A stretch of DNA of 64,000 nt from the NCBI GenBank assembly GCA_028707065.1, contig JAQTUZ010000002.1, positions 6,513 through 70,512 of the forward strand. The letters run 5' to 3'. Within the stretch, counting starts at the first letter, position 1. The number at the start of each line of letters is the position of its first letter. The DNA comes from Patescibacteria group bacterium (GTDB taxonomy: Bacteria; Patescibacteriota; Patescibacteriia; Patescibacteriales; WJLG01). Under the pieces are notes generated by a model that saw nothing but the letters and a program-made list of their open reading frames with translations, ran no database searches and was not told the DNA's origin. Made by a program: the position numbers and the translations under genes. This document shows, one piece after another, positions 35,623 through 59,600 of the stretch.

Positions 35623-37845
35623 CTATTCCAAATGAATTTTTTCTTCGAAAATTTCCATTTCCTGCTTTAAGGCAGGATTTTTTTTAAGGTCTGGATCGAT
35701 GTTGAGCAAGGCGACGGCTTCGTTTTGCGCTTGTTGCATTAATTCATAATCCCAGAGCGTGGCGATCTTCAATCCGGGGAAGCCGGATTGGGCCGTGCCG
35801 AAAATTTCGCCCGAACCGCGCAATTTTAAATCCATCTTGGCCAAGGCAAAACCGTCGGAAATTTTTTCCATCGCTTCCAGGCGGCGGCGAGTTTTTTCAT
35901 CGTTGGAAGAAGGGAAGAGAAAACAATATGATTGCTCGGCGCCGCGCCCGACCCGGCCGCGGAATTGATGCAATTGCGCCAAGCCGAAACGATCGGCGCC
36001 TTCGATCATCATAATAGTTGCGTTGGGAACATCGACGCCGACTTCGATCACGGAAGTGGAAACCAAGATTTTATATTCATTATCCAAAAAGCCGCGCATG
36101 ATTTCTTCTTTGTCTTTGGCCTTAAGTTTTCCGTGCAGGGCGGCCATCTTTATTTCCGGAAAAATTGCTTTGTCTAGTTTGATAAATTCTTCTTTGACTG
36201 ATTTCACGCCATAAAGATCAGATTCTTCAATCAGGGGACAAATGACAAAAGTTTGCCGGCCGGCCTTGATTTGTTTCCTGATAAAATCATAAGCGGCGGC
36301 GCGTTTTTCTTCCGGAACGATACGGGTCATGATCGGTTTGCGCCCGATCGGCATCTGTTTGATCACGGAAATATCCAGATCGCCAAACAGCGCCAGCGCC
36401 AGCGAGCGGGGGATCGGCGTGGCCGTCATCGATAATAAATGCGGCGTCAAATCCGAATGGCCGGATTTGGCCATTAAAGTTTTTCTCTGCTCCACGCCGA
36501 AGCGGTGCTGTTCGTCGATTACGGCTAAAGCCAAATTTTTAAATTTCACATCTTCCTGCAATAACGCATGCGTGCCGATAATGATATCTATTTCGCCCGC
36601 CCCGACCATCTTTAAAATTTCCGCCCTGCCGATTTTTTTCCCTCCTTGCGAAGGAGAGGTTAGGGGTGGTTTGTTTTTGTCATCCCGCCTGCCCGGCCAG
36701 GGAGCACAGGCCGCCTCGGCGACGGGGCAAGCAGCTGAAAAATCCCCTCTTGGGAGGGGTGGCCGCGCCGCGCGGACGGGGTGGGTATATTTATTTTCGT
36801 TATTTAAGAGTCGATAATTATTTGTCAGTAAGGCAATTCTTAATGGAAAATTATTTAGCAATCGCGAAAGCGAATTAAAATGCTGCTGCGCGAGAATTTC
36901 CGTCGGCGCCATCAAAACGCCCTGCTTATTATTCAGCGCCACGTTTAGCAAGGCGATGACCGCTACCAAAGTTTTTCCCGAGCCAACATCGCCGTTCAAG
37001 AGCCGCGACATCGGCCGCGTTTTGCCCAAATCGCCTAAGATCGCCCAAGCGGCTTGCCGCTGGTCGTCAGTTAATTTGAAAGGCAAACCGGCCACAAATT
37101 CCTTGGTATCTTTTTCCTTGAATTCGATTTTTACAGCAGTTGCCAAATCGCGGTCTTTTTTTACCAATTGCGATTTTAATTGCAGCAAAAATAATTCATC
37201 GAAGGCCAGGCGGCGGCGCGCCGTCTCCGCGTCAGCCCATTTTTTGGGGAAATGGATCAGTTTTATCGTTTCCTTGAGCGGTAATAAATTAAGTTTTTTT
37301 CTGATTTCTTCCGGCAGAGCGTCGGGTAAATTATGGCTAAGATCGATAACCTGGCTGATTAAAAATCTTAATTGTTTTTGGGTGATCTTTTCAGTCAAAT
37401 GATAATTGGGCACCAAGCCGGAAGTGTGAATCAGTCCTGATGTGCTGACCCGTTCATAAACCGGCGAGGCCATGGTCAAAACGCCCTGATCTTCGGCTCG
37501 GCCGGCGAGCGAGATTGTGTCGCCGACGCGCAAGGTTTTGCCGATGAACGGCTGATTGAACCAGATCACTTTTAAAGTTTCCGTTCCATCGTTAATGAGC
37601 GCTTCAGTGATATACATGCGGCGATGGTGGGCGCGGCGATTCTCGATCAATTCGATCTGGCCGATGACATTGGCGGCAATTCCCGGCCGCAAATCCTTAA
37701 TTTTGGTCGAATGGGTAAAATCGTCATAACGATAGGGAAAATAAAAAAGCAGATCTTCTGCGTTATTAAGACCGATCATTGCCAGACGCTTGCCGATGCT
37801 CGCGCCCACGCCTTTGAGGGAAGTTAGAGGAGTATTTAAGTCCAT
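35623..37845 (-). CDS. recG: ATP-dependent DNA helicase RecG with repeat-encoded internal insert
   Basis: ORF track start 37884 lies in CGAATAC-word repeats; I prefer the ATG at 37845 (MDLNTPLTSLKGVG). Wedge/OB N-terminus, helicase motifs GDVGSGKT, VIDEQHRFG, LSMTATPIPR, QLHQFRGRVGRG. Confidence 0.9.
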   Translation of the reverse strand: MDLNTPLTSLKGVGASIGKRLAMIGLNNAEDLLFYFPYRYDDFTHSTKIKDLRPGIAANVIGQIELIENRRAHHRRMYITEALINDGTETLKVIWFNQPFIGKTLRVGDTISLAGRAEDQGVLTMASPVYERVSTSGLIHTSGLVPNYHLTEKITQKQLRFLISQVIDLSHNLPDALPEEIRKKLNLLPLKETIKLIHFPKKWADAETARRRLAFDELFLLQLKSQLVKKDRDLATAVKIEFKEKDTKEFVAGLPFKLTDDQRQAAWAILGDLGKTRPMSRLLNGDVGSGKTLVAVIALLNVALNNKQGVLMAPTEILAQQHFNSLSRLLNNFPLRIALLTNNYRLLNNENKYTHPVRAARPPLPRGDFSAACPVAEAACAPWPGRRDDKNKPPLTSPSQGGKKIGRAEILKMVGAGEIDIIIGTHALLQEDVKFKNLALAVIDEQHRFGVEQRKTLMAKSGHSDLTPHLLSMTATPIPRSLALALFGDLDISVIKQMPIGRKPIMTRIVPEEKRAAAYDFIRKQIKAGRQTFVICPLIEESDLYGVKSVKEEFIKLDKAIFPEIKMAALHGKLKAKDKEEIMRGFLDNEYKILVSTSVIEVGVDVPNATIMMIEGADRFGLAQLHQFRGRVGRGAEQSYCFLFPSSNDEKTRRRLEAMEKISDGFALAKMDLKLRGSGEIFGTAQSGFPGLKIATLWDYELMQQAQNEAVALLNIDPDLKKNPALKQEMEIFEEKIHLE
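36639..36788. repeat. compound B + C + A element insert, in frame inside recG
   Basis: Family B 36639-36673, tgtcatcc-type hairpin 36679-36725, family A 36743-36788. The coding strand reads ..YTHPVRAARPPLPRGDFSAACPVAEAACAPWPGRRDDKNKPPLTSPSQGGKK... Confidence 0.85.
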
Positions 37846-37898: not shown

Positions 37899-37946
37899 TT
37901 CCCCTCCGCGGGAGGGGTGGTCCGCCCTGGGCGGACCGGGGTGTGT
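37899..37946. repeat. family A double-hairpin element (intergenic, upstream of recG)
   Basis: ttcccctccgcgggaggggtggtccgccctgggcggaccggggtgtgt, followed by catcc. Confidence 0.85.
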
Positions 37947-38074: not shown

Positions 38075-38527
38075 TTAAGCAAGCAATTTGGCGACTGCTT
38101 GTTTTATTTTTTTGTTGAGTTTGATGGAAATGTTCGGGTCGCCATCGCGGCCTGTTCCGGGACAGGGGATGCAAAGATAATTATGATCGCGGATAAACTT
38201 GGCTTGCTCGGCCGCGTCGCCCCCGTAGTGATTGATCAGCCATTGGCTTTGATTATCGATAGTGGCCTCGATTAAGCCAAAAGCATTTTGTAATGACTCC
38301 TTTTTCATTATCCTGCACCCAGTCACTATTTCAGAAGGGCCGTGAACGACTCGCCAGGCTACGTCATAATAATTTTCGGTGAAGTTTTTTGATATTGTTA
38401 ATTGTTCCGCTCTTCCGCCAATGGCCAGATAGCCATTTTCTCTGATAAAATTTGTTATCCGCATTTCATCGCCATGACTGTGCCACCAATCGGGACGCTG
38501 TTTTAACCGAGGTATTTTTGTCGCCAT
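38075..38527 (-). CDS. hypothetical protein
   Basis: 150 aa, no motif recognised. A terminator lies downstream. Confidence 0.55.
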   Translation of the reverse strand: MATKIPRLKQRPDWWHSHGDEMRITNFIRENGYLAIGGRAEQLTISKNFTENYYDVAWRVVHGPSEIVTGCRIMKKESLQNAFGLIEATIDNQSQWLINHYGGDAAEQAKFIRDHNYLCIPCPGTGRDGDPNISIKLNKKIKQAVAKLLA

Positions 38528-38654
38528 CAGAACCTCCGTTTTTGTTTTTAAGTTGCAAATTTAAGCCGATTAGCTTAACAGATTATATTAAGGCAAAACA
38601 ACAAAAAAGGCAAGAAATAAAAAAGCCTGGTTTTTGAGGCCAAGCTTTTGCGAG

Positions 38655-39611
38655 TCAGAGTGAAAAAAAACTCGATTTCTTCTTTTTTTGCTTAGTATTT
38701 TTGCTTTTTTCCGGAGCGGGCGGCAATTTGATTATGTCATTAATCGGGTGGCAAATGGTTTCGGTTGGCGCTTTGCGACGTTTAGGAGACTCCGCCGAAG
38801 CCGTTTCGATGCCATATTTTTTTCCCAGCGCCAGATAGATTTCCATGAAGATTTTTTCCGCTTCCTTGATCATTGATGAGCCCGGGGGATAATTGATGAT
38901 CGGGTCTTTGATAACCAGATAGTCGGCGTTGGAATTGATTGCCGCGGTCGGGGTAATCGTTTTCCCCAGACAATTTGACGAACCTTTCGGGTCAACACCA
39001 TAGATCATTTTCTTAATGTGTCCAAAAGCGATTTTGTCGTCGTATGATTTAATATCTCTGGGGCTGCAAATCACCCCATCTAATTCGCGTCTGGAAACAA
39101 TATCCTGGAAAGATTTCATCCGGCCATAAAATTCGCCAAAAATCGGCGCAGCAGCACACGGTTCAAGGTTAATGGGTATGGTAATGGCAAAGATCAACGG
39201 TCGGAACGGCAAACTGGACGAGCTTTCTTCCGGCTGGATTTCCCATGCTTCCCGAAATGGCCTGGTGCCTTTGTTCATTTCATCAACGAAATTTTCGATT
39301 GCTTTAAACCCGGCGGAACAATGGATGCTGACCATTGCCGCTCCGCTGTCTTTGAGCTTTTTTCCCAGATTACCCATTTCATCGTCAGGCACATTGATGT
39401 TCAAATTAAGGAAAATGCGCGTCTTTAAGTCTTTAGCCGCCAAGAGTATCGCATAGTAAGAACTTAGGCTGGCTGCCAGATTTACGCAAAACCCTCCGAC
39501 ATGGGGAGATAATTCCCGCATAATCGGATGGGCCTCATCAAAATAAGCAAAATCAGACATGTCGACCATCATTATGCCTCGAGCTTTTAGTTTCAGGGTG
39601 GCTTCATCCAT
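38655..39611 (-). CDS. hypothetical protein with weak, degenerate OMP-decarboxylase-like (TIM-barrel) pattern
   Basis: 318 aa. IMMVDM.., ..RIFLNLNINVPDDE.. and ..AAMVSIHCSAG.. loosely parallel the OMPDC blocks (..vALD.., ..iFLDlKlhDIpnT.., ..vtvH...G), but the catalytic Asp/Lys positions are replaced. Lys-rich C-terminal tail. Confidence 0.45.
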   Translation of the reverse strand: MDEATLKLKARGIMMVDMSDFAYFDEAHPIMRELSPHVGGFCVNLAASLSSYYAILLAAKDLKTRIFLNLNINVPDDEMGNLGKKLKDSGAAMVSIHCSAGFKAIENFVDEMNKGTRPFREAWEIQPEESSSSLPFRPLIFAITIPINLEPCAAAPIFGEFYGRMKSFQDIVSRRELDGVICSPRDIKSYDDKIAFGHIKKMIYGVDPKGSSNCLGKTITPTAAINSNADYLVIKDPIINYPPGSSMIKEAEKIFMEIYLALGKKYGIETASAESPKRRKAPTETICHPINDIIKLPPAPEKSKNTKQKKKKSSFFSL

Positions 39612-39720
39612 GATAATGTCCTTTTTTAAAGTGTTTAAAGAGCATTACAAGTTTTCTATCTAAAATACCATAAAGATTAAAATTAATCAATGGGTACGTA
39701 TGTAGCGGGATATTGATAAA

Positions 39721-39748
39721 ATAAAAACAGGCCTCGTCGGCCTGCTTT
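39721..39748 (-). terminator. Rho-independent terminator closing the tRNA-Arg/repeat transcription unit
   Basis: Minus strand: aaagcaggcc-gacg-aggcctg followed by tttttat. Confidence 0.65.
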
Positions 39749-39752
39749 AAAT

Positions 39753-40094
39753 TGTGCTCTCGACAGGAAATCGAATCGTCGCTTCGCTCCTCTTTGGAAG
39801 GGGTTTCCACCCCTTCCAATACCATCCCCCGAAAACAGCGGGGAACTACCGTTCCCCAAACCCCTCCCGTTCGATTCCTGTCGGACAAAACAAAAACGGC
39901 CGCCGATGCGTCCGCTTTTGTTTTGTGCTCTCGACAGGAAATCGAATCGTCGCTTCGCTCCTCTTTGGAAGGGGTTTTCACCCCTTCCAATACCATCCCC
40001 CGAAAACAGCGGGGAACTACCGTTCCCCAAACCCCTCCCGTTCGATTCCTGTCGGACAAAACAAAAACGGCCGCCGATGCGTCCGCTTTTGTTT
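39753..40094. repeat. two tandem 171-bp units, each starting with a copy of the tRNA-Arg 3' end
   Basis: Units 39753-39923 and 39924-40094 differ at one base that I could see. Each begins tgtgctctcgacaggaaatcgaa (compare the tRNA 3' end tgtgctctcgacaggaatcgaa at 40095) and carries an inverted partner gttcgattcctgtcggac. Each holds three internal hairpins (ttggaagggg/ccccttccaa, ccccg/cgggg, gggaac/gttccc) and a terminator-like aaaacaaaa..ttttgtttt hairpin. Confidence 0.9.
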
Positions 40095-40096
40095 TG

Positions 40097-40168
40097 TGCT
40101 CTCGACAGGAATCGAACCTGTATCACAAGCTTCGGAGGCCTGCGTCCTATCCGTTGAACGACGAGAGC
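40097..40168 (-). tRNA. tRNA-Arg (anticodon CCG)
   Basis: 72 nt folded by hand: acceptor GCTCTCG/CGAGAGC, D arm GTTC-AACGGATA-GGAC, anticodon arm CAGGC-CTCCGAA-GCTTG, T arm ACAGG-TTCGATT-CCTGT, discriminator A. Confidence 0.85.
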
Positions 40169-40233
40169 TAAATGTGTTTCTTTATCTTTTTTTACTTTGT
40201 AAAAAGTGTAAAACGCGCCCGGCCCTGCCGGGC

Positions 40234-40283
40234 ATCCGTTGCCACCCAGAGGGTGGTCCGCCTTTGGCGGAAACGACGAGAGC
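40234..40283 (-). pseudogene. tRNA-Arg 5' fragment (acceptor + D arm) interrupted by a 30-bp double-hairpin element
   Basis: The plus strand reads atccgttg[ccacccagagggtggtccgcctttggcgga]aacgacgagagc. Without the bracketed insert (40242-40271) it equals the 5' 20 nt of the CCG tRNA. No anticodon or T arm follows; a hairpin gcccggc/gccgggc follows instead. Confidence 0.6.
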
Positions 40284-40446
40284 TTCTAGTTAATTATAAA
40301 TTAAAAATTATAAATTATAAATAGGCGATTTGTTCATAACAAATAAAACCCTTCAAAGGGTTCTATTTGTACAATTTTTCATCTTTAATTTTTAATTGAT
40401 TCATGTGCCCTTATGGGGACTGGATTGGAACCGAATACTGCGGGAA

Positions 40447-41061
40447 TTAAGGTTTTGGCAGGGAGTGCTCCAGTCCGCCGAATAAGCGTTTCCTGTATAT
40501 GGAAAAAAGTATTAACGTGTTCGCAATAAGTAAATAGATTTGAAATGCAGAATTTTCTATGTTCCATCTTGGAATAGACGGAAGAACCAACACTACTGCA
40601 ACCAGGCTAGCAATAAAGGTAACCCCAGTCTCTGTTTCGGGATGCGTCCAGGCTTTACGAATTGTAGGAAGTGATGCAAGGCCATCACCAAGAGCCGCTA
40701 GTAGTATTGCACTACGAGGAGAATCAGCTAACGCCCAAACAATTAGTGCCAACACCGAACATAAACCACACGCCAAATCAAATCTTGTTAGTTTCCAATA
40801 GCTCTGCTTATTAACAAATGAAACAAGAAAGACGAGTAAGGGTAAAAAACCAGCGAGGAAAATTCTAACCGTTGCCCAAACATCAGCGTGGGCATAAAGA
40901 GCGGCGGCAGTTCCTATAAGTGGGGCAAGTGCCCACATAGACCAAGAGATGCGGTTGGGTTTTGTTTTACCATTCAACGTATCTCGAATATAGGCAAATG
41001 AGCCAAGCACGCTTATAACCGCACTTATTATGACCAGCCAATGAATTAAAGGTAATCCCAT
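40447..41061 (-). CDS. hypothetical polytopic membrane protein
   Basis: 204 aa with about 6-7 hydrophobic helices, no motif recognised. It is the only gene between the two tRNA-Arg clusters. A hairpin with a T-rich tract lies downstream at about 40330-40364. Confidence 0.55.
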   Translation of the reverse strand: MGLPLIHWLVIISAVISVLGSFAYIRDTLNGKTKPNRISWSMWALAPLIGTAAALYAHADVWATVRIFLAGFLPLLVFLVSFVNKQSYWKLTRFDLACGLCSVLALIVWALADSPRSAILLAALGDGLASLPTIRKAWTHPETETGVTFIASLVAVVLVLPSIPRWNIENSAFQIYLLIANTLILFSIYRKRLFGGLEHSLPKP

Positions 41062-41104
41062 ATTTGTAGCTTATCGTAGATTCAAATAGTTTATTATGGA
41101 TTGG

Positions 41105-41200
41105 TGCTCTCGGCAGGAATCGAACCTGCATTACAAGATCCGCAATCTTGCGTCCTATCCATTGCCACCCAGTGGGTGGTCACCCTCTGGGTGAAACGAC
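41105..41200 (-). pseudogene. tRNA-Arg(GCG) near-full duplicate with a 30-bp double-hairpin element in the D arm and no 5' acceptor strand
   Basis: 41105-41164 is identical to the 3' 60 nt of the adjacent tRNA. Then comes the insert ccacccagtgggtggtcaccctctgggtga (41165-41194), then aacgac, then unrelated ttgtgtaa instead of gagagc. Confidence 0.65.
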
Positions 41201-41209
41201 TTGTGTAAG

Positions 41210-41281
41210 TGCTCTCGGCAGGAATCGAACCTGCATTACAAGATCCGCAATCTTGCGTCCTATCCATTGAACGACGAGAGC
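41210..41281 (-). tRNA. tRNA-Arg (anticodon GCG)
   Basis: 72 nt: acceptor GCTCTCG/CGAGAGC, D arm GTTC-AATGGATA-GGAC, anticodon arm CAAGA-TTGCGGA-TCTTG, T arm GCAGG-TTCGATT-CCTGC, discriminator A. Confidence 0.8.
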
Positions 41282-41290
41282 TCAATAATT

Positions 41291-41377
41291 TATCCATTGC
41301 CCGCTACATCGGCCTTTGGCCGTGAGCGGGTCCGCGCACGCCGCATCTGGCGGCGATGTCGCGGAAACGACGGGCGC
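41291..41377 (-). pseudogene. tRNA 5' fragment interrupted by a 66-bp double-hairpin element at the same D-arm position
   Basis: tatccattg[cccgct..agcgggtccgcg..cgcgga]aacgacgggcgc. Acceptor strand GCGCCCG. Insert at 41300-41365. Confidence 0.55.
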
Positions 41378-41388
41378 TTTTTTAAAAT

Positions 41389-41423
41389 ACCCCTCCTTTC
41401 CAAGGAGGGGATGGGGTGGTTTG
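41389..41423. repeat. family B hairpin element (intergenic)
   Basis: acccctcctttccaaggaggggatggggtggtttg. Confidence 0.85.
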
Positions 41424-41445
41424 ATTCACCGCTATGAACATCTTG

Positions 41446-42021
41446 CTATAACCGGAACAGTTTTGTCAACTGTTCGGACAGGGGGATGGTCGTTCTTTCC
41501 AGATTTTCTTTGACGTATTTAAGCAGATTCCGGCGGATGACGATCGGATTCATATCATCCAAGGGGATGGAAAAGCGGGTGCGGGCGAAATTGACCAGCC
41601 AAAAAAGCCAGCTATAGCGGGCCGGTTCGTTGGCCGGCAAAGCGGGTCGGGCAAATCTCTTGAATTCCAAATAAAGATTTTTTACTCCCTCGTCCGGCTC
41701 ATAAATTATAAAAAAATCCTGAATAAGGCCATAATCATAAAATTCTTTGCCCACTGTCACGCCCCGATCGCTTAAAGTGACATTAAGCGATCCTGGTCTG
41801 CCACCGTCAAAAATTACGAGCAAGACCGCCGCAAAAATAATAATGATGGCAAAAATCAGATTTTGCGTAAAAATCGCGTAGGTCAAAAGAGCGATGGCGA
41901 TGAGCGAGTAGATCGCGTACCAAAGCTTTGTTTTCCCTTCGCTTTGATATTCGGGTATTTGCCAGCTGATGACGTCGGTTTCGGATTTGATGTCTTGAGT
42001 CGGCTTGTATTCTTCGGCCAT
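41446..42021 (-). CDS. hypothetical membrane protein (two TM helices + soluble C-terminal domain)
   Basis: 191 aa. TM hairpin LWYAIYSLIAIALLTYAIF / LIFAIIIIFAAVLLVIF. No motif recognised. Confidence 0.55.
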   Translation of the reverse strand: MAEEYKPTQDIKSETDVISWQIPEYQSEGKTKLWYAIYSLIAIALLTYAIFTQNLIFAIIIIFAAVLLVIFDGGRPGSLNVTLSDRGVTVGKEFYDYGLIQDFFIIYEPDEGVKNLYLEFKRFARPALPANEPARYSWLFWLVNFARTRFSIPLDDMNPIVIRRNLLKYVKENLERTTIPLSEQLTKLFRL

Positions 42022-42138
42022 ATTGTTTGACAGTCAATTTTTTATCTTATATTATGATTATATCATATTTGTAAGTTAACGTAAAATATACCAATAGATA
42101 AATCGAAAATCTGAAATCTTAAATCGAAAATCGAAAGA

Positions 42139-42228
42139 GGAGAGGTGGCTGAGTGGCTGAAAGCAGCACACTGCTAATGTGTTAACCTAGCAATAGGTTC
42201 ATGGGTTCGAATCCCATCCTCTCCGCCA
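42139..42228 (+). tRNA. tRNA-Ser (anticodon GCT), class II with long variable arm, CCA encoded
   Basis: GGAGAGG..CCTCTCC acceptor, anticodon loop CTGCTAA, variable-arm hairpin aacct-agcaat-aggtt, T arm ATGGG-TTCGAAT-CCCAT, then GCCA. Confidence 0.9.
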
Positions 42229-42468
42229 AGATAACTAAGTATCGTGCAGACCCGAGTGGCTTTAAAGTGGGGAGTTCGCTGATAATAAAAAAATAACGAT
42301 TTTAAAGTCGTTATTTTTTTATAGCAGAGGAATTTATACTCATTTGATAAGCGATTTTGAAGCCCACAGGCCGTCGCCAATCCGATACCAGCCATTTTTT
42401 TCTTCAAACGCTTGTATTGCAGCATCTCATCATTTACAAGACTCGTTTTTCGCGTTATTATTTTGAAT

Positions 42469-44730
42469 ATGTTCAAACATTTAAAAACGAAAAAATGGGT
42501 TGTTTATGTGTCAACTTTTCCGCCCCGCGAGTGCGGAATTGCCACCTTTACCGAGGATTTAATGGATTACTTCGACGAAATGTATAAGCCTCATGAAGAG
42601 GCGAAAGTTATTGCCATGAATCTTGATCGGACTTCCCGATATGCTTATGATCAATCGAGGGTTATTTATCAGATTCCCCAGCCGAGCGAATCCCGTTATG
42701 AGGACGCCGCAAAATACCTGAATTCTCTTGACCAAGTAGCCCTTGTCCACGTTCAGCATGAATTTGGAATTTTTGGCGGATTATATGGCGGTCATCTGAT
42801 TCTTTTTCTGCGTGAGCTCAAAAAACCAGCGATAGTTACTTTTCATACGGTATTACCTTCGCCTAATCCCGAGCTGAAAGATATGGTGGGCGCGATCAAT
42901 AATCACGTACAGAAGATCGTGGTCATAACGGAAACCTCAAAGCGGATACTGATTGCCGAATACGGAATCGACCCGGAAAAAATCGTCATTATTGCCCACG
43001 GCATCCATCCGGTTAATTTTTCTAACGGCCAAAAAAATCGCGCGGATTTAGGGCTCGAAAAATCCGTGGTTATTTCAACCTTCGGCTTGATTGGAAGAGG
43101 CAAGGGGATAGAGTACGGCATTGAGGCCATGGCGGAAGTCGTCAAAAAAAATCCCAACGCCATTTATCTTATCATCGGCGCTACGCATCCGGTTGTTTTA
43201 AAAAACGAAGGCGAAGCTTATCGGAATTCGTTAGAGCAAAAGGTCCATGATCTTGGCCTCGAGGATCATGTTTTCTTTTATGATAAATATCTTGAACTCC
43301 ACGAGTTGCTTTATTTTCTGGATGCCACGAATATTTATTTGGCGCTTTCCCAAGATCCGAATCAAGCTGTTTCCGGAACTTTATCTTATGCGCTGGGCTG
43401 CGGCCGTCCGGTTGTTTCTACGTCGTTCGCCCAGGCCAAGGAAGATGTCACCGAAGATATCGGCATCTTAGTCGGTTTTAAGGATGTAACCGGCATAGCT
43501 GAAGCTCTTTCTCATTTGATAAATAATTCAGAGCTTCGCGGCCAGATGGGCAAGAATGCTTATTTTAAGACGCGAGTCAGAACGTGGAGAAATTCCGTGC
43601 TCCGCCATATGAATGAATATATCCGCCTGGTGCCCTCTTTGGGAGAAGAAGAAAAAAATCTGCCCAGGATACGGCTTACCCATCTTAACGCCATGACTGA
43701 CAGCTTTGGCATCATCCAATTCGCCAATCTGATAACGCCGGATCCGTCCTCCGGATATACTCTTGATGATAACGCACGGGCATTGGCGGCGGCGGTAAAA
43801 TATTATGAAATTTCCGGCAAGAAAAAAGTTTTTCCGCTCATTCATACTTATCTGAATTTTATCGAGTATGTTCAAAAGGACGGCGGAGGTTTTCATAATT
43901 ACGTGGATGCTAAAAGAAAAATTATCGGTAATGAGCAGCTTGATGAAAATCTCGAAAGCGCCAGCACCAGGGCGATGCATGCTTTGGCGGCAACCGCCGC
44001 TTCTCCTTCTTTGCCGCAACAGTTCCGCGAAAAGGCGATTGCAATGTTTAAAAAGAACCTGCCTATGCTATTAGCCGTAACTTCTCCCCGCTCAATCGCC
44101 TATGCTATCAAGGCGCTCCGTTTTTGGAATTCCGCTTATCCTTCTCCCGATACGGTCCAGGCCGCGGCCAAGCTTGCCGACAAGCTGGTTGAATATTACG
44201 AAAAGACCAGCGCTCCCGATTGGCATTGGTTTGAAGATATCCTGGCTTATGCCAACGGCATCATGCCCGATTCCCTGATCGACGCGTATTTGCTTACTAA
44301 GAACGAAAAATATTTGAGCATCGCCCGCGAATCGCTCGATTTTCTCATCGGCAACAGCTTTAAGGAAAATATTTGCGTCCCGATCGGCCAGAACGGCTGG
44401 CTGAAGCGCGGCGAAAAGAAATATAACTACGATCAGCAGCCGGAAGAGGCGGCCAGTCTGGTTATAGCTTTAAAGTCAATGCACGAGGCCACTCGCGATG
44501 AAAAATACGCGCGCCGGATGCGCCAGGCTTTTGATTGGTTTTTAGGGAACAATCTTCTTCGCCGCGTCGTTTATGATCAGAATTCCGGCGGCTGCTTTGA
44601 CGGCCTCGGCGAAAACGAGGTTAATCTTAATCAGGGCGCGGAATCCACTATCATGTATCTTCTGGCGCGCCTTGAATTCGAGCAGTCTTTAGTAGGGCGG
44701 CAAAACGAGGACATTAAGGACGCGGTTTAG
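42469..44730 (+). CDS. GT4-family glycosyltransferase fused to a large C-terminal domain of unknown function
   Basis: ORF track start 42412; I prefer ATG 42469 (MFKHLKTKKWVVYVSTFPPRECGIATFTEDL). The GT-B/GT4 pattern extends to about residue 400 (..GRGKGIEY.., ..EDHVFF..YLALSQDPNQAVSGTLSYALGCGRPVVST..). About 350 further residues carry no recognised motif. Confidence 0.75.
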   Translation: MFKHLKTKKWVVYVSTFPPRECGIATFTEDLMDYFDEMYKPHEEAKVIAMNLDRTSRYAYDQSRVIYQIPQPSESRYEDAAKYLNSLDQVALVHVQHEFGIFGGLYGGHLILFLRELKKPAIVTFHTVLPSPNPELKDMVGAINNHVQKIVVITETSKRILIAEYGIDPEKIVIIAHGIHPVNFSNGQKNRADLGLEKSVVISTFGLIGRGKGIEYGIEAMAEVVKKNPNAIYLIIGATHPVVLKNEGEAYRNSLEQKVHDLGLEDHVFFYDKYLELHELLYFLDATNIYLALSQDPNQAVSGTLSYALGCGRPVVSTSFAQAKEDVTEDIGILVGFKDVTGIAEALSHLINNSELRGQMGKNAYFKTRVRTWRNSVLRHMNEYIRLVPSLGEEEKNLPRIRLTHLNAMTDSFGIIQFANLITPDPSSGYTLDDNARALAAAVKYYEISGKKKVFPLIHTYLNFIEYVQKDGGGFHNYVDAKRKIIGNEQLDENLESASTRAMHALAATAASPSLPQQFREKAIAMFKKNLPMLLAVTSPRSIAYAIKALRFWNSAYPSPDTVQAAAKLADKLVEYYEKTSAPDWHWFEDILAYANGIMPDSLIDAYLLTKNEKYLSIARESLDFLIGNSFKENICVPIGQNGWLKRGEKKYNYDQQPEEAASLVIALKSMHEATRDEKYARRMRQAFDWFLGNNLLRRVVYDQNSGGCFDGLGENEVNLNQGAESTIMYLLARLEFEQSLVGRQNEDIKDAV

Positions 44731-47873: not shown

Positions 47874-48332
47874 ATGCGCCGAAAATTTATCCTATCCGTA
47901 TTAAACGTTTTAACACTCTGTGTTGTCATCGCCGCCGTTAGCATATCTTTTGTTGAAAACAACAAATGGATGGGCATTGTGTTAATTGTTCTTGCTATTC
48001 TTTGCGTTGTTTCTCTTATACCTTTTAAAATTAATTTAAAATCCGCCTTGCCTGATATTTTTTTTGGCGTAATTGATAATGGTATTTTGGCCATTTTAGC
48101 TATATTTGGCGGTCATTTTGCGGGCGTAGTCGGCGCAATTATCGGCGGAGTTGTCGGCAACGCTATAACCGATGGCATCGCTGGCATATTTGAAGGACAT
48201 ATGGCAGAAAGATTAAGATTACGGTTTGTTAATGAGGAGAGAACGATGCTTAAGTCGGCCGTCGGGAAAATGGCAGGCTGTCTTTTGGGTGCGGGAGCTG
48301 TTTTGGCCGCAAACAGTATTATAAAATTTTAA
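47874..48332 (+). CDS. hypothetical membrane protein with Gly-zipper segment
   Basis: 152 aa with TM helices and GVVGAIIGGVVGNAITDGIAGIF. Its stop overlaps the convergent recombinase stop (48329-48332). Confidence 0.5.
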   Translation: MRRKFILSVLNVLTLCVVIAAVSISFVENNKWMGIVLIVLAILCVVSLIPFKINLKSALPDIFFGVIDNGILAILAIFGGHFAGVVGAIIGGVVGNAITDGIAGIFEGHMAERLRLRFVNEERTMLKSAVGKMAGCLLGAGAVLAANSIIKF

Positions 48333-49690
48333 GTTCTTTCATATTTTAAAAGAGTTAAAGTTTTGTCTTTGTAGACTATTTTTGATCTTAGATTTCCAAG
48401 CAGTTCGCGTTTTTCCGATACCGACCCCTCTTTAAGAATATATTTAGCGTAATTACGAATATCCATATCATCCCTGGTTTTTACTTTATCTGTACTGCCC
48501 AGCACCGATCTTTGGAAGATATTGAACCGGGCAATTTCGTCTTCTAGCCGTTTTCTCATGCCAAGTTCGTTGATATCTACCTTGTCTAATATTTTTAACA
48601 GTTCTTCTATTAATTCTTCTTCCCGGATATATTTATTTTTGCAATTCCGGTCTCTCGCCCTAGAACAAGAATAATAGACATATCTGTTGTGCGTGCCGTC
48701 TTTAAGCTGTTTGTATTTTTCTTCGGCCGAGATGCCCGATCCGCAATAGCCGCAAGTGAATAATTTGGTGAAGGAAAATTCATGATTTTTTCTCGTGATA
48801 TTATCCCTCTCTAATTGCGCCTTAGCCTTTTCGAATAACTCCTGGGTGATAATCGGCTCGTGTTTGCCGGTATACCAATTGCCGCTGTTCAGCGGACGTT
48901 CGAATACTCCATAATAGAAAGGATTATTCAGGATGCGATAGACTCCGCTTAATGTCAGCGGTTTGTTGCCCCGAGTATAAAAATTCAGTTCATGCCTGAG
49001 CCAGTTATATATCTTTCGGCCTGAATAATTATCAAAAGCGACTTTCTCAAACATTTTTTTGATAACCGGCGCCCTTTGCGGGTCTAATATAATTTGGCAT
49101 TTTTTATCCATCCGATTTTGATTCAGATAACCCAACGGCGCCAGCCCTGCCCAGAGCCCCATCTCGGCTCTAGTCCGCAGACCGCGTTTAACATTTACTC
49201 CTCGGTTATCGTTTTCTAATTTTGCCTGCGATCCTAAAATCATTAGTAAAAATTTTTCATTGGGGTTGTTGCCGAACCTTTGGCCGTAAGTTCGGATGTC
49301 TTGCAGTAACCCCGAATCCATTAAATCGACGATTCTGCCTAAGTCCCCGGCATTCCTGGAAATGCGATCCGGTGCCCATGTCAGAATACCATTAAATTTT
49401 TTCTGCTTGATTTCATCGATAATCTCATTAAAAACCGGCCGTTGGCCGGTTTCTTTGGCAGAATGGGATTCTCGCTTCATGGTCACTACTTCCAGATTTT
49501 CCTTTTCGGCCAGCAAAAGCATCTCTTTAATTTGACTGTCGATTGAAAGGACTTGCCGTTCCTCGGATTCGCTCGATTTCCTAGCATATAAGCAGTACTT
49601 CACCGGAACGTCCAAAGAAACTGAATTTGACCCCGAATTTCGCCCCGGGCTCGCGGATAATACCGCCGTGTTTGTTGCCTGTTGTTGCAT
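48329..49690 (-). CDS. large serine recombinase (phage-integrase type)
   Basis: 453 aa. Resolvase-type catalytic N-terminus (YCLYARKSSESEERQVLSIDSQ, catalytic Ser context YxRxSS..Q), a recombinase domain, then the zinc-ribbon CGYCGSG..YYSCSRARDRNCKNKY and a coiled-coil tail. Confidence 0.85.
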   Translation of the reverse strand: MQQQATNTAVLSASPGRNSGSNSVSLDVPVKYCLYARKSSESEERQVLSIDSQIKEMLLLAEKENLEVVTMKRESHSAKETGQRPVFNEIIDEIKQKKFNGILTWAPDRISRNAGDLGRIVDLMDSGLLQDIRTYGQRFGNNPNEKFLLMILGSQAKLENDNRGVNVKRGLRTRAEMGLWAGLAPLGYLNQNRMDKKCQIILDPQRAPVIKKMFEKVAFDNYSGRKIYNWLRHELNFYTRGNKPLTLSGVYRILNNPFYYGVFERPLNSGNWYTGKHEPIITQELFEKAKAQLERDNITRKNHEFSFTKLFTCGYCGSGISAEEKYKQLKDGTHNRYVYYSCSRARDRNCKNKYIREEELIEELLKILDKVDINELGMRKRLEDEIARFNIFQRSVLGSTDKVKTRDDMDIRNYAKYILKEGSVSEKRELLGNLRSKIVYKDKTLTLLKYERT

Positions 49691-49875: not shown

Positions 49876-52800
49876 ATGCCAGCTATAACTAATACGGGAA
49901 CAAATACGCTATCTAGCAAGCTAAAAAGTATGCTTCCCGATTGCGATAAAATCGACGCCCTTGTCGGCTATTTTTATTTTTCCGGGTTTAAAGACTTGCA
50001 CAATGAGTTGAGGGATAAACAGATAAGGATTCTTGTTGGCATGGATATTGACAAAAAGATCATTGAAAAGGTTTCAACGCTAAAAGATCTTGATTTGGAT
50101 TCCCATGTCGTTGAAACAAAAAAATCTTCTAGAACGGGAGCAAAAGAGGACTATATTGAAAATTTTTCGAAGATTTTTAATGATACGGACTATTTTGATA
50201 ATGATGAGTCCCAAAAAGCATTTGAAATATTTTTGGATAAAATAAAAGATGGAAGTCTTCAGATTAAAAAAACGGCGGTCGCTAATCACTCGAAATTTTA
50301 TATTCTTCACAACAAGACCGGTGACGGCGTTGTGATTGTTGGATCAAGTAATTTAACTGTCTCCGGCCTTAGAGAGCAGAGAGAGCATAATATTTTGCTT
50401 TCAGAAAAACATTATTATGATAGCCATGTAAAAGATTTTGAAGAGTGCTGGGATGACGAGGATAATATAACAATTACGGATATTGGTTCGTCAGATAATT
50501 TTATTACTGAAATAAAAAGTAGAATCTGGCTTTATTCCTTGCCTGACCCAATTTTGATGTATTACCGCGTTTTAAGTGAGTATTTTGCCGTAAGCGAATC
50601 TGCTGATATGAAAACGCCGATGCGCATTACCGGCGGCAAATTTTTTGACCTCAAGTATCAGAAGGACGCGATCAATCTTGGTATAGATAGAATTAAAAAA
50701 TTTGGCGGCGTTATTATTGCTGATGTCGTCGGTCTTGGTAAAAGTATTATCGCTTCTGCGATTGCGCATAATCTTGGCATGCAAACGATTATCATTGCTC
50801 CGCCTCATCTCGAAAGTCAGTGGAAGGATTATATGGCTGAATTTGATTTCAAGGGCCAGGTTTATACGACCGGCAGAATCGAGGAGGCCCTCGAAAGACA
50901 TAAGGACAATGGAGGGAAGCTTTTGATTATTCTTGACGAAGCCCATAAACATCGTAATGAAGATACTGATAATTATAAGGTGTTGCATAGATTGTGCGCC
51001 GGTAATTTTGTCATGGCTTTGTCGGCGACACCGTTCAATAATGATCCGAAAGATATTTACGCCTTGATAAAATTGTTTAGTACCCCCGGACAATCTACTG
51101 TTCGAACCGTAGAGAATTTGAGCATGTCTTTTCATATGCTTTTCAAGCGATATAAAAAGGTTAGAAAAGATTTGAGAAAAAACAGCGATGGTGATGAAAA
51201 AGATAAATTAGAAGTTAAGACAGAATTGCATTCTATCGCAGATGAGCTCAGAAAAATGATTGAGCCACTTGTTATTCGCCGTTCGCGTTTAGACCTAGAA
51301 GAGATTGAAGACTATCGTGAAGATTTAAAGAGGCAAGGAATTTCCTTTGCCAAGGTGAAAGATCCGGAATTGCTCGAATATAATCTTGGCGACATGCTTA
51401 ATTTGTATATAGACACTCTTGAAAAAATATCACCGGACGATAAAAGTACCAGCTTTATTGGCACACGCTATAAACCGGCAAGCTATATTAGGGAAGGTTC
51501 AGAATTTATAAAGAAATTGGCAGAGAGTGAGGATGATGATGAAAGTGGCGCTTCCCCGGAGGAACAGATGCAAAGAATTAAGCAAGCTCAGGTTAACGTG
51601 GCAAAGTTCATGAGAAGATTGTTGGTTAGGCGCTTTGAAAGCTCGATCGGTGCCTTTAAGATATCCCTTGATCATATGATCACTTCTTCGGAAACAATGC
51701 TGGATTGGTATGTAAACAGACAGCAAGTTCCAATTTTTAAAAAAGGAGCACTCCCTGAAGTCGATGAATTGGAAGAAATGGAAGATAAGGAAAGGGAGGA
51801 GCTATTTTCAAAGCTAGAAGGAAAAGGACTTATACTTATCCCAGCCAAGGAAATTGATTTGAATTTTGAGCGCGATTTAAAAGCCGATATTGAATTGTTG
51901 AAAAAAATTCAAACGGAATGGTCTCAAAATAGCAATGATTATAAATATGAATTTCTTAAACAAAGATTATCAGAATCAATTGCCAAAGATAGGAGTAGGA
52001 AAATAATTATATTTACTGAGTTTTCAGATACGGCTAATTATGTTTACGAAAAATTAAGCAAAGATGGTTTTAAACGCGTGTTTAAATATAGCTCGGCGGA
52101 TTCATCGGACGAAAATAAAAAAATAATTCGGACTAATTTTGATGCCGGCTTAGATTTAGCAAAACAATCCGATGATTTTGATATAATTATCGCGACCGAC
52201 GCGATTTCGGAAGGTTTCAATCTTCATCGCGCCGGGACGATTATTAATTATGATATTCCCTATAATCCGACCAGAGTTATTCAGCGCGTTGGCCGTATAA
52301 ATCGTGTCAATAAAAAAGTTTTTGACGAGCTTTATATCTATAATTTTTTTCCGACAGCCACCGGCGAGCAGGAAACGCAGACAAAAGCAATTTCAACTTT
52401 AAAAATGGACCTTATCCATACTCTTTTGGGTGAGGATACAAAAACTTTAACATCGGACGAAGATTTAAAAAATTATTTTGCTAAACAGTACAAAGAAGAA
52501 AACGCGGAAAATGAAAGTCTGTCATGGGATGCGCCGTATAGGAACACTTGGCTGAAAATTAAGGATGATCAAGCGATAATGCAAAAGATTTCGGAAATTC
52601 CTCATCGTTCAAGAATTGCCAGAAAAGGAAAAGTGGCCGGGGTGGTGGCGTTTGCCAAGAAAAGCGGGAATTATATTTTTGCCTTTGGTGAAACGCCGGA
52701 AACGGTTAGTATTGTGTCGCCGCAAGTGGCATTGCCGCTATTTGACGATACGACTGATTCAGAAAAGGCATTACAAACAAGCGTCAACTTTGACCCCATT

Positions 52801-53148
52801 TATAAAATGGCTAAGGAGCATATTTTTAAAGAAAATACTAAGCCGCCGGTTGAAACCGGAAGGAGACAGGATGCTTTAAACAAAATTAAGATTTTAGCCG
52901 ATAATTACCCCCAGGCGCATGATTTGTGTCTTGATGTGATCAAAATAATTAAAGATCTTGATGGCTTGCCCAATGGATTGCTCAAGGACATTGCCGAAAT
53001 AAAGATTGATAAAAAGGATTTTGATTCTGCGCTTAAAGCACTAAAACAGTTGGTGCCAATTAAATATATTGAAAGTATTTTTAATACGGCGGAGCGGGCT
53101 AACGATACCGGCAAGCTTATTGTTTTATCGGAAGAATTATTTATATGA
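49876..53148 (+). CDS. PLD(HKD)-nuclease-like domain fused to SNF2-family helicase
   Basis: 1090 aa. N-terminal HKD-like motif HSKFYILH..VIVGSSNLT. SF2/SNF2 motifs ADVVGLGKS (I), LLIILDEAHKHRN (II, DEAH), ALSATPFNN (III), ATDAISEGFNLH (V), QRVGRINR (VI). Confidence 0.85.
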   Translation: MPAITNTGTNTLSSKLKSMLPDCDKIDALVGYFYFSGFKDLHNELRDKQIRILVGMDIDKKIIEKVSTLKDLDLDSHVVETKKSSRTGAKEDYIENFSKIFNDTDYFDNDESQKAFEIFLDKIKDGSLQIKKTAVANHSKFYILHNKTGDGVVIVGSSNLTVSGLREQREHNILLSEKHYYDSHVKDFEECWDDEDNITITDIGSSDNFITEIKSRIWLYSLPDPILMYYRVLSEYFAVSESADMKTPMRITGGKFFDLKYQKDAINLGIDRIKKFGGVIIADVVGLGKSIIASAIAHNLGMQTIIIAPPHLESQWKDYMAEFDFKGQVYTTGRIEEALERHKDNGGKLLIILDEAHKHRNEDTDNYKVLHRLCAGNFVMALSATPFNNDPKDIYALIKLFSTPGQSTVRTVENLSMSFHMLFKRYKKVRKDLRKNSDGDEKDKLEVKTELHSIADELRKMIEPLVIRRSRLDLEEIEDYREDLKRQGISFAKVKDPELLEYNLGDMLNLYIDTLEKISPDDKSTSFIGTRYKPASYIREGSEFIKKLAESEDDDESGASPEEQMQRIKQAQVNVAKFMRRLLVRRFESSIGAFKISLDHMITSSETMLDWYVNRQQVPIFKKGALPEVDELEEMEDKEREELFSKLEGKGLILIPAKEIDLNFERDLKADIELLKKIQTEWSQNSNDYKYEFLKQRLSESIAKDRSRKIIIFTEFSDTANYVYEKLSKDGFKRVFKYSSADSSDENKKIIRTNFDAGLDLAKQSDDFDIIIATDAISEGFNLHRAGTIINYDIPYNPTRVIQRVGRINRVNKKVFDELYIYNFFPTATGEQETQTKAISTLKMDLIHTLLGEDTKTLTSDEDLKNYFAKQYKEENAENESLSWDAPYRNTWLKIKDDQAIMQKISEIPHRSRIARKGKVAGVVAFAKKSGNYIFAFGETPETVSIVSPQVALPLFDDTTDSEKALQTSVNFDPIYKMAKEHIFKENTKPPVETGRRQDALNKIKILADNYPQAHDLCLDVIKIIKDLDGLPNGLLKDIAEIKIDKKDFDSALKALKQLVPIKYIESIFNTAERANDTGKLIVLSEELFI

Positions 53149-56100
53149 TTAAATTTAATGAGAAATATGATTCAGGCAATTTTTTGCAATTTCTGCAGGA
53201 TTTTTTGCCTTCTGATTTTGTAGAAAAAGAAGAAGATGTAGTTATAAACAAAGATAGGTATAAAGAAATAACCAAGGCTAAGATATTGGGCTATTGTGAA
53301 TCTCTTGATCTTTACATCTTAGAAATGGAGCACTCTAGAGAAAAAGATCCTAGGGTGACTATTGCCACTGATGCATTCAAAATTTTAGCTGATCACTGGA
53401 TCCATAAGGCGTTGGTTATTTTTGAAAATAAGGACTCTGATAATTATAGATTTTCCTATCTCACAATCTCTTTAGATTTGAATGAAAAAAATAAGGCGGT
53501 AAAAAAATATTCAAACGCTCGCCGGTATTCTTTTTATTTGGGGGTTAATGCGAAAGTTAGAACGCCAGAGCAGCAACTCATTAAGAAGGGGAGACTTCAG
53601 AACATAGAAGATTTGTTTAACAGATTTTCCGTCGAGGTGGTAAATAAACAATTTTATTTAGAGGTTGCAAGATTTTTTGATGAATTAGTTTCTGGATTAT
53701 CACTTCCCAGTGTTTCCCAGGAGAATATAAATATCAAAAAGACTTTTGCTGTCAGATTGATCGGCCGGCTTATGTTTTGCTGGTTTTTGAAGCAGAAAAA
53801 ATCAGCATCCGGTCAGCTTATACCTGATGAAATACTTTCTTCTAAAGTCGTATCGAATAATTATTATCACGGGATTATTGAGCCGCTTTTCTTTGAGGTG
53901 CTAAATACCAGCATTGAAACCCGTGGAATAAGAAATGATTTATTTGATAAAGTTCCATATTTAAATGGCGGTTTATTTAATCCCCAGTCAGAAGATTATT
54001 ACGAATTAGACAGGGGAACGTTCACCTCGAAATTTATCAACACTCTAAAGATAAGTGATGATTGGTTTAAGAATTTTTTTGAGCTTCTTGAAACGTATAA
54101 TTTTACTATTGATGAAAATACTGTTTTTGATCAAGAGCTTTCGGTTGACCCGGAAATGCTCGGGAGAATTTTTGAAAATTTGCTCGCTGAAATTGATCAT
54201 AAAGAAGGCAGTAGCGAACAAAAAAGAACAGGGAGCTTCTATACCCCACGTCAAATAGTGGAATACATGGTAGATCAATCGCTCATTGAATATTTAAAAA
54301 CAAAGACTGGCATAGAATCGGAAAAGCTCTCAGCTCTTTTAAGTTATGATTTAAATGACGACGAAGATTATCCGCTTAATGATATTGAAAAGCAAGAAAT
54401 TGTTGAAGCTATTGGTTCTTTGAAAATTTTAGATCCGGCGTGTGGGTCAGGCGCTTATCCCATTGGTGCACTTCAAAAAATTGTTTACGCCCTACAATTA
54501 GTTGATCCGGATTGTAAATTGTGGCTTGATTTAAAATTAAAAGGCGTCCCAGATTTATATAAGCAAAAAATAATCAATGAGGTGCAAGAAAACCCTTTTG
54601 ATTATGTCCGCAAGCTTGATGTTATAAAATATTCAATCTTCGGAGTTGATATTCAGCCAATAGCCGTAGACGTATCGCGCTTGCGTTGTTTTTTAACCCT
54701 TGTTGTTGAATCTGAAATTGACGACGCTAAATCAAATAGGGGAATTGAGCCGTTGCCTAACCTGGATTTTAAATTTGTCTGCGCCAACACTTTGATTGGT
54801 TTGCCGAAGGTTGAAAAGACCGGACTTTTTGATGATCATTCCGGGATCGCCGAGCTTTCAAACATAATGTCAGAATATTTTTCTTGCAATAGTCAAGGTA
54901 AAAATGAAATAAAATTAAAGTTTGCCAATTCACAAAAGATGATTCTGGAAAAAACAATATCGGCTTTTAGGGGAAGCACGGGGGATTTGACTTTAAAACT
55001 AGTTAGCTGGAACCCTTTTAGTAATAATTGCAATCCTTGGTTTGATCCGGAGTGGATGTTCGGAACTGAGGAAAAATTTGACATCGTGATTGGTAATCCG
55101 CCCTATATCAAAGAATACACTAACAGAGGCGCATTTGATGGGGTAAGAGAAAGTGATTATTATCAGGGCAAGATGGATATTTGGTACATGTTTGCCTGTA
55201 TGGGGTTTGATTTTTTGAAGGAAAATGGCGTTGAGTGTTTTATAGCTCAAAATAACTGGGTAACAAGTAGCGGCGCTTCAAAGATGAGAAATAAAATAAT
55301 AAGAGATAATCAAATAGTAAGTATTCTTGATTTTGGAAATTATAAAATTTTTGAAACGGCTGGGATACAAACAATGGTTATGCTTTTTAAAAAAAGCAGC
55401 TCATTGGATAATTATCAAATTGATTATAGGAGGCTCAAGGGTGAAGACCTTGTTATTGGTGACGCCCTTGATCTTCTGATGAAAAAAACAAACCCCAACG
55501 CTGAGTATCTAACCCCAGAAATCAGCAGAAAGGAGTTGTTTGATAAGAAAATTACATTTAGTGATTCGGTGTCGGACAAAATACTTAAAAAGATTGTCAA
55601 AAATTCAAATTTTAAATTGACCGAAAAAGAAGTTGCAAATGGTATACACCATCATCACGATAGGATAAATAAGGATAGAAAAAATATTCTTAATGGCCGG
55701 TATAAAGTTGGCGATGGAATTTTTGTGCTTAGCAATCAAGAAAAAGATAAAATTTGCTTTACTCAAAAAGAATTAGAATTAATAAAGCCATCGTATACTA
55801 CCAAGGAATTGATAAAATGGTACGGAAACCCTCATAATAAGGAATGGGTAATTTACACCGATTCAAGTTTTAGAAATGAGGACAAAATTAATGAATATCC
55901 AAATATAAAAAAACATCTTGATCAATTCAAAGAGGTTATAACTTCGGATAACAAGCCATATGGATTGCATAGATCTAGAGAAGAGTATTTTTTTAAAGGA
56001 GAAAAAATAATTGCAGTTAGAAAATGTCTAACCCCGACATTTACGTATACTGATTTTGATTGTTATGTTTCGGCGACTTTTTATGTAATTAAAACAGAAA

Positions 56101-56405: not shown

Positions 56406-56409
56406 AATT

Positions 56410-59554: not shown

Positions 59555-59600
59555 TTTCGGTTTGCATTTTTGGCGTTATTTAAATTAGCAATTTGTAAAA

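Follow-up and report, generated by a model that had tools for sequence, protein, structure and literature searches.

Repeats that lie behind tRNA genes and regenerate the tRNA 3' end have been known in Escherichia coli since the 1970s, and their Rfam entry, the RtT RNA, we take to be RF00391. When we re-derived the tyrT-tyrV trailer of E. coli K-12, we obtained a 178-bp unit that closes with the 3' end of tRNA-Tyr and is present in 3.1 copies; its annotation lists a 171-nt ncRNA, rttR, and a small ORF, tpr. Here we describe two tandem units of similar design in a 64-kb window (the whole stretch of DNA that was analysed) of a Patescibacteria genome, where they stand directly 3' of a tRNA-Arg(CCG) gene and on the tRNA strand. 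We see about an even chance that the two units arose by recent tandem duplication of a single conserved, non-coding, RtT-like module, anchored at the tRNA 3' end, read as RNA and under selection. By analogy, and with the same divided confidence, the family to which this module belongs would be of the same kind as the E. coli tyrT/RtT repeats, yet a different and undescribed family.

The tRNA-Arg(CCG) gene was placed by ARAGORN and Rfam at 40096/40097-40168 on the minus strand. Behind it, Tandem Repeats Finder reports a period of 171 with 2.1 copies, 98% matches and a score of 716 at 39752-40116, and a repeat search resolves the 171-bp units as 39752-39922 and 39923-40093. Their sole difference is C at 39807 versus T at 39978, which agrees with the initial annotation of two near-identical 171-bp units with one mismatch. 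Along the minus strand the order is tRNA(D0)-A-B-C-D-A-B-C-D, followed by a separate terminator-like hairpin, and a single module has the layout tRNA 3' end, A, B, C, copy of the tRNA 3' end. The features are as follows.

40210..40283, minus strand: 5' context of tRNA-Arg(CCG), with tRNA positions 1-12, two 15-nt hairpins, positions 13-20 and then a hairpin
40097..40168, minus strand: tRNA-Arg(CCG), CCA not encoded (ARAGORN; Rfam tRNA, 59.6 bits)
Last ~24 bases of tRNA-Arg(CCG), minus strand: D0, from the T loop to 3 nt beyond the discriminator; first direct-repeat copy
40057..40096, minus strand: hairpin A, copy 1, CAAAACAAAAGCGGACGC-ATCG-GCGGCCGTTTTTGTTTTG, terminator-like, with flanking A and T tracts
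40040..40056, minus strand: B, copy 1, an inverted copy of tRNA positions ~53-67 that pairs with D (helix 1)
39949..40039, minus strand: C core, copy 1, 91 nt of hairpins, with the derived base at 39978
40001-40040, minus strand: extended G.U-rich hairpin in C, copy 1
39965-39990, minus strand: hairpin C3 in C, copy 1, containing the single derived base (39978)
39949-39960, minus strand: mini-hairpin GAGCGAAGCGAC in C, copy 1
39926..39948, minus strand: D, copy 1, GATTCGATTTCCTGTCGAGAGCA; its extra T is the bulge in the B-D stem
39886..39925, minus strand: hairpin A, copy 2
39869..39885, minus strand: B, copy 2
39778..39868, minus strand: C core, copy 2, with the family-consensus base at 39807
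39755..39777, minus strand: D, copy 2, followed by CAA and then unique flank
39718..39748, minus strand: distal hairpin resembling an intrinsic terminator, AAAGCAGGCC-GACGA-GGCCTGTTTTTATTTT, which closes the array

D (GATTCGATTTCCTGTCGAGAGCA) repeats the tRNA 3' end in direct orientation, starting at the T loop and reaching the discriminator, with one extra T, and B (TCCGACAGGAATCGAAC) is complementary at 15 of 15 nt to the T loop, the T stem and the start of the acceptor strand. These are the tRNA 3'-end copy and the inverted partner that had been noticed in each unit. An imperfect palindrome of ~82 nt spans the tRNA 3' end, A and B, and B pairs with D too. Hairpin A, 40 nt long, has its GC stem between CAAAACAAAA and TTTTGTTTTG, with a T run after it. 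An 8-bp GC stem with one mismatch and then TTTTTGTTTTG give it the layout of an intrinsic terminator, which a simple terminator scan missed because of the mismatch. Each unit does carry a terminator-like hairpin, as originally described, and this hairpin, with its GC stem, its TTTTTGTTTTG and its retention in six genomes, leaves the accompanying view that 39721-39748 holds the only real terminator unsupported. Equivalent distal hairpins with other stems follow D in three relatives (L009, L015 and L020). As for the three perfect hairpins that had been seen within each unit, two are perfect and independent, GGGGAAC-GGTA-GTTCCCC and a 10-11-bp hairpin TTGGAAGGGG...CCCCTTCCAA; the third, CCCCG...CGGGG, runs into the 3' arm of the first, and the comparative fold puts one extended G.U-rich hairpin in its place. 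ARAGORN found no tRNA or tmRNA inside the units, no promoter-like site was found within a unit, and neither the repeat search nor a covariance model found further copies in the 64-kb window beyond the tandem pair.

The source genome was metagenome-assembled from short reads and the units differ by a single base, as would fit an artefact in which one unit was unrolled to two through strain polymorphism. An independent Logan assembly, of run SRR22315508, in which the gene for the flanking 318-aa ORF is also present, speaks against it. Its contig begins exactly 30 nt (k-1) before the fork between D/A and D/flank; this break is a de Bruijn fork at k = 31, and the D-to-A junction is therefore present in the reads. 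One unit could not give the fork, because D0 and D have only 17 common bases and a single unit repeats no k-mer. The reads thus contain at least two units, with more copies possible. An assembly artefact is unlikely as the source of the tandem, and we consider the unrolling of a single unit highly improbable.

The wider distribution of the module was followed from a tRNA 3'-end scan over one genome per species, which gave ten Patescibacteria loci, and from homologues of the adjoining 191-aa gene with gene order preserved, which gave extra ones; the 318-aa flanking ORF is identical to a hypothetical protein from an NCBI metagenome-assembled Patescibacteria genome and had no other homologue, and synteny was therefore traced through the 191-aa ORF instead. 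The shared gene order is tRNA-Ser(GCT), the 191-aa gene, tRNA-Arg(GCG), tRNA-Arg(CCG) and RecG. One homologous module each stands behind tRNA-Arg(CCG) in L009, L015, L020, L026 and L028, the one in L009 having a partly different interior. The module is absent behind this tRNA in L008 and L018, and L013, L017 and L021 have unrelated short units there that likewise end in the tRNA 3' end. Copy number among relatives is thus 0, 1 or 2, and the spread is patchy: the closest relative, L013, is without the module, whereas more distant relatives have it. The empty site of L008 and the filled site of L028 have homologous flanks on both sides of the insert, a picture that would equally come from recombinational deletion between D0 and D. 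Within D of L015, L020 and L009 there is also a 19-nt hairpin (TCCGCC-TCG-GGCGGA) that is absent from the window.

Scanning metagenomes for the invariant C3 hairpin, as a 26-mer, returned five contigs, all of which carry the module in a tRNA trailer; the 26-mer was not found outside modules. The tRNA is tRNA-Arg(CCG) in L026 and L028 and tRNA-Ser(TGA) in L025, and in L024 and L027 the module lies beside tRNA-like 3' ends at which a tRNA was not recognised. An earlier metagenome pattern, made of B and the start of C, had no match, and the homologues found later differ from it by at least one base. All genome and metagenome scans used exact patterns, and diverged copies were missed by them. A covariance model built from nine copies scores all the modules named above at 138-158 bits and finds a diverged copy behind tRNA-Leu(CAG) in L027 (66 bits, E 4.5e-15), so that this 3.8-kb contig has two diverged copies at different tRNAs. 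The family as known has ten members, with 64 kb of the present genome covered by the window. At least three recognised tRNA species host the module, namely Arg(CCG), Ser(TGA) and Leu(CAG), and the proposed search for the unit in other tRNA contexts was in this respect positive. Every known copy is on the tRNA strand and in the trailer.

The arms of the module follow the tRNA behind which it stands. At every site D consists of GA, the local T loop, an extra T, the 3' strand of the local T stem, the acceptor 3' strand, the discriminator and 1-3 bases. B holds the local T loop inverted, and the loop sequences TTCGATT, TTCGAAT and TTCAAGT are each mirrored in both arms; the extra T of D is kept regardless of the T-loop sequence. 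The insert is bracketed by a direct repeat, with the tRNA intact, of 17 identical bases plus the T loop here and of 15-19 elsewhere. One site is mixed: in L025 the A and B parts belong to the L027 type and D fits the site's own tRNA-Ser, from which it follows that A-B-C travels and that the tRNA-specific part of D is local.

Other, unrelated interiors with the same architecture, an inverted and then a direct copy of the tRNA end, occur in L017, at the tRNA-Ala of L027, in L002 and in L005. More broadly, module types other than the present one were seen behind tRNA genes in L017 (7815-8010), L027 (2290-2447), L013 (5099-5240), L021 (4855-4920), L005 and L002. Each finishes with the local tRNA 3' end in copy, and several open with an inverted one. 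A right end of AGAAGAGACGGGG-loop-CCCC is common to the L017 (Arg) and L027 (Ala) modules. In L013 and L021 the short units consist of T arms whose T loop is broken up by hairpins, and the last unit of each L013 array has the 3' end of another acceptor variant (CGGGTGCAC).

Sequence conservation is uneven along the module. B-C-D is 92-96% identical among the window, L015 and L020, genomes in which the adjacent 191-aa gene is 76-79% identical and its third codon positions, at 52-60%, are saturated. Across seven other copies the C core is 93-95% identical and hairpin A only 60-80%, the stem of A being preserved via compensatory changes in six genomes. Within the close set the orphan module of L024, whose tRNA is not recognisable, has diverged furthest (85%). 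Since A drifts although it lies inside the inserted segment and is absent at the empty site, recent whole-unit transfer cannot explain the contrast between A and C. The C core is, to judge from these alignments, probably under purifying selection at the sequence level.

The array region folds far better than shuffled sequence, with z = -10.1 in sense and -11.3 in antisense. RNAalifold predicts a B-D stem of 12 pairs with a bulged T that encloses the extended hairpin, the invariant C3 and the mini-hairpin. In an alignment of ten sequences, 97.6% of the cells are paired, a figure that reflects an alignment fitted to the model. Both-sided changes occur in nine pairs, where shuffles gave 2.7 (0/500) and slid controls 0-3, and the covariation that the initial annotation had proposed to look for is therefore seen. 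Helix 2 is largely G.U, alternating with G.C and A.U, and its pairs are available to the tRNA-sense strand alone; in eight of the ten modules this strand has a fold better by 5-13 kcal/mol than that of its complement. Helix 4 (C3) is invariant and gives no structural information, and in the B-D stem covariation could have an alternative source, both arms being copied from the local tRNA. Read with these limits (ten sequences, an alignment fitted to the model and B-D arms that are possibly tRNA-copied), the covariation lends support to the predicted fold.

Protein coding by the unit was considered and rejected, an ATG-led frame in the core being broken by 1-nt and 19-nt indels among homologues. 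Long ORFs run through the repeat because 171 is a multiple of 3; they overlap the tRNA gene, their frame is not conserved, and none of the four gave anything above threshold in Pfam. Their initial dismissal as repeat artefacts was sound, the 1- and 19-nt indels breaking every frame. Searched with Rfam at E <= 1, the region 38500-43000 yielded tRNAs and chance matches only, with no ribozyme, RtT or HEARO. Four patterns had 0 matches in viral contigs, and BLAST against phages and plasmids likewise gave 0. No integrase or transposase was found adjoining any module, neighbouring ORFs hold no recombinase domain, and the only recombinase of the window (48329-49690) is 8 kb off. The array sequence has no integron core motif, and no short target-site duplication was found outside B and D. 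Retrons, CRISPR, integrons and IS200/IS605-type ends were rejected as candidates, with no reverse transcriptase, cas, IntI or TnpA/TnpB nearby. In the literature on the Candidate Phyla Radiation we found no description of such elements. No Rfam family, annotated element or paper that we found matches the family, which is undescribed.

The surroundings of the array are themselves rich in repeats. The fragment at 40210-40283 lies just downstream of promoter-like hexamers at 40293-40342 and, from its position, this duplicated 5' fragment is probably the leader of the tRNA-Arg(CCG) precursor; homologous leader fragments occur in L009, L015 and L026, and their 12/13 site holds either longer nested hairpins or none. 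The neighbouring tRNA-Arg(GCG), at 41210-41281 on the minus strand, is followed by a second copy of positions 7-73 at 41105-41200, whose D stem is interrupted by a 30-nt double hairpin, and preceded by a 5' fragment at 41291-41377 made of positions 1-12, two nested hairpins and positions 13-21. Its downstream copy is conserved in L008 (4387-4560), where an identical compensatory change in the anticodon stems of tRNA and copy indicates that the two evolve in concert. The usual anticodon of this bacterial tRNA-Arg is ACG; GCG is found in the window as well as in L002-L005, L008-L010, L013, L015-L023 and L028, and among close relatives tRNA-Arg(GCG) has two acceptor-stem variants, GCTCTCG and GCACCCG.

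Small hairpin elements are scattered through the window. One family of GC-rich double hairpins, AATT-CCCCTC-N4-GAGGGG-TGG-CCGCC-N3-GGCGG-ACGGGGTG, is present at ~1459-1493, 4829-4869, 8490-8523, 22183-22199, 36744-36790 and 37901-37937. Several copies lie in frame inside long ORFs, and the one in RecG is an insertion of ~20 aa that three orthologues are without; in this the elements resemble Rickettsia palindromic elements. A second hairpin, AACCACCCC-N3-CCCCTCCTTGGAAAGGAGGGG, occurs four times (2482-2502, 8683-8703, 22309-22329 and 41390-41410), one copy being a terminator-like hairpin, and 14 bases (CCCCAAACCCCTCC) are common to this motif and the unit core. At least the copy at 8683-8703 is inside a long ORF, that of leucyl-tRNA synthetase (6077-9085, 1002 aa), which holds two small hairpin elements and has a NUDIX domain at residues 408-530, between the editing and catalytic domains. 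Farther along, the large serine recombinase gene at 48329-49690 abuts an MFS transporter fragment and adjoins an island of low GC content (32-38%) at 49876-63548. The island carries genes for a PLD-SNF2 helicase, an Eco57I-like methylase, NERD and SNase nucleases and a terminase large subunit, and is probably an integrated element with defence genes.

If the array is an RtT-like module duplicated in tandem, as we prefer to read it, homologous recombination between D0 and D, direct repeats of ~17-24 bp, would shift its copy number by unequal exchange. Such an exchange would give a duplication with the extra T in the middle repeat, as seen, and the reciprocal deletion would leave an empty site. 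Unequal crossover between D repeats is also simpler than the accretion of elements in tandem that had first been suggested. With one mismatch per 171 bp the duplication, or a conversion, must be recent; the derived base (39978) is in the proximal unit. The module would act as RNA on the tRNA strand. Hairpin A would terminate most tRNA transcripts, and read-through of A would produce a trailer RNA that folds into the B-D stem and its hairpins. The 3' end of this RNA may be set by the tRNA 3'-end machinery, as reported for RtT RNA, with trimming expected at D because D mimics the tRNA 3' end. The nearly universal T-loop sequence could be the place where recombination or template switching carried the module to new tRNA genes, after which B and D would be matched to the new tRNA.

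Strand bias, the fixed position in the trailer, the pattern of conservation and the greater divergence of L024 favour an RNA role. The structured, tRNA-linked ncRNA that was one of the two options raised at the outset thus gains from the conserved core beside a drifting A, from a G.U helix available in sense only and from the constant position in the trailer on the tRNA strand. Hairpin A, as an efficient-looking putative terminator upstream of B-C-D, counts against the RNA reading: with A in this place and no internal promoter-like site, co-transcription requires read-through. A distribution over several tRNAs with flanking direct repeats is also expected of a mobile DNA element, and the unrelated interiors of like architecture in L017, L027-Ala, L002 and L005 point to a generating process at the DNA level.

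The other option raised at the outset, a MITE-like or integrative element, leads to a reading that we hold to be a serious, if less likely, rival: a selfish, non-autonomous miniature integrative element or cassette that recombines in or next to the T loop of tRNA genes. The insert of 150-171 bp would be A-B-C with the left part of D, and its entry would duplicate the tRNA sequence between the T loop and a point slightly beyond the 3' end, leaving the tRNA whole. The B-D hairpin and its extrahelical T would be the substrate of a recombinase encoded at another place, and the two copies in the window would be a double insertion or a dimer. One core behind at least three recognised tRNA species, each with direct repeats of its own tRNA (15-19 bases and the T loop), is what such an element would leave, and the imprint of another tRNA on A and B of L025, the extra T that stays constant across T-loop sequences, the orthologous sites that are empty in some genomes and filled in others, and the patchy distribution, with L013 as the closest relative lacking the module, all fit it. 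What survives of the original proposal is thus presence and absence at orthologous sites and repeats matched to the tRNA. Against it stand the lack of an adjoining integrase or transposase (the sole recombinase in the window is the large serine recombinase 8 kb off), of matches in viral contigs, phages or plasmids, of the classical short target-site duplication of a MITE outside B and D, and of extra copies in the 64-kb window. Nor does recent whole-unit transfer account for A at 60-80% beside C at 93-95%, a contrast that selection on C in single-copy, vertically inherited modules can explain. A rather unlikely variant is that the family is something new altogether, either a cassette that targets tRNA genes as a folded single strand or a ~170-nt D-A-B-C circle, or a trailer ncRNA of tRNA 3' metabolism. 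For the cassette, by analogy with attC, recombination would take place at the B-D stem with its conserved extrahelical T, and docking at the stretch from T loop to 3' end of any tRNA gene, which would explain both the arms rewritten for each tRNA and the arrays of direct and inverted copies behind Patescibacteria tRNA genes; the ncRNA would be conserved at a tRNA-like level and have a role in the tRNA 3'-end metabolism of reduced genomes.

Duplication by snap-back or template switching gives direct, inverted and direct copies with palindromic junctions, as in the tandem inversion duplications of Salmonella, and the direct-inverted-direct pattern of tRNA ends with palindromic junctions at this locus would fit such an event. 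The modules would then have begun as tandem or tandem-inversion duplications of the tRNA 3' region that arose through fold-back at terminator and T-arm palindromes, decayed, were later colonised by GC-rich hairpins and have no function. Both the many small hairpin elements of the genome, some of them inside genes, and the partial tRNA copies with hairpin insertions that flank both tRNA-Arg genes are in keeping with this origin. We nevertheless find a functionless by-product quite improbable, because 93-95% identity is not sustainable where third codon positions are saturated, the C3 26-mer was found only within modules in the metagenome scan and the fold is kept by compensatory changes. Fold-back duplication may have been the first origin of the direct-inverted-direct pattern, but it does not explain the conservation.

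Patescibacteria thus have an unrelated and much more strongly conserved family that follows the logic of the E. coli RtT repeats, in genomes that are tiny and leave little space for junk. The core conserved at the level of tRNA, the arms that co-vary with the local tRNA, the conserved bulge and sites with 0, 1 or 2 copies provide handles for testing the family's role. If the module works as RNA, it would be a new class of ncRNA linked to tRNA 3'-end processing; if it works as DNA, it would represent a new way to target tRNA genes without killing them. For annotation the arrays carry a warning, as ORFs predicted across them are spurious.

Set against described systems, the module is like integrative elements at tRNA 3' ends in that it has a tRNA-segment direct repeat flanking an insert, an intact tRNA and both empty and filled sites, and, like tandem integrase-less cis-mobilizable remnants, its tandem copies have a middle repeat in common. 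Its insert of ~150 bp is, however, geneless, with no integrase nearby and no phage or plasmid match, and its repeat fits a different tRNA at each site, unlike a fixed attP. MITE- or REP-like elements are similarly small, non-coding and strongly folded, with terminal inverted repeats (here B and D) and several copies per lineage, but the inverted repeats of the module are copied from the local T arm and are not fixed ends, a short target-site duplication is lacking, and all known copies are in tRNA trailers rather than dispersed. The imperfect palindrome with a conserved bulged base, variable centre and arrayed units recalls integron attC sites as a resemblance only, for there is no GTTRRRY/RYYYAAC core, no IntI-type integrase was found and the array follows a tRNA, not attI.

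The E. coli RtT repeats differ from the module in sequence and model, with no match to Rfam RtT at E <= 1. Their unit encodes Tpr, keeps the T arm's 5' half directly oriented and lacks an inverted copy of the tRNA end, whereas the Patescibacteria module has the inverted T-arm copy B, an internal terminator-like hairpin, no conserved ORF and relatives behind several tRNA species. Yet both lie immediately 3' of a tRNA gene and on its strand, both have a hairpin-rich interior and a unit that ends in the tRNA 3' end, and both are tandem at ~170-180 bp (178 bp in 3.1 copies in E. coli, 171 bp in 2.1 copies here). The short units of L013 and L021 come nearer still in design to the E. coli RtT unit.
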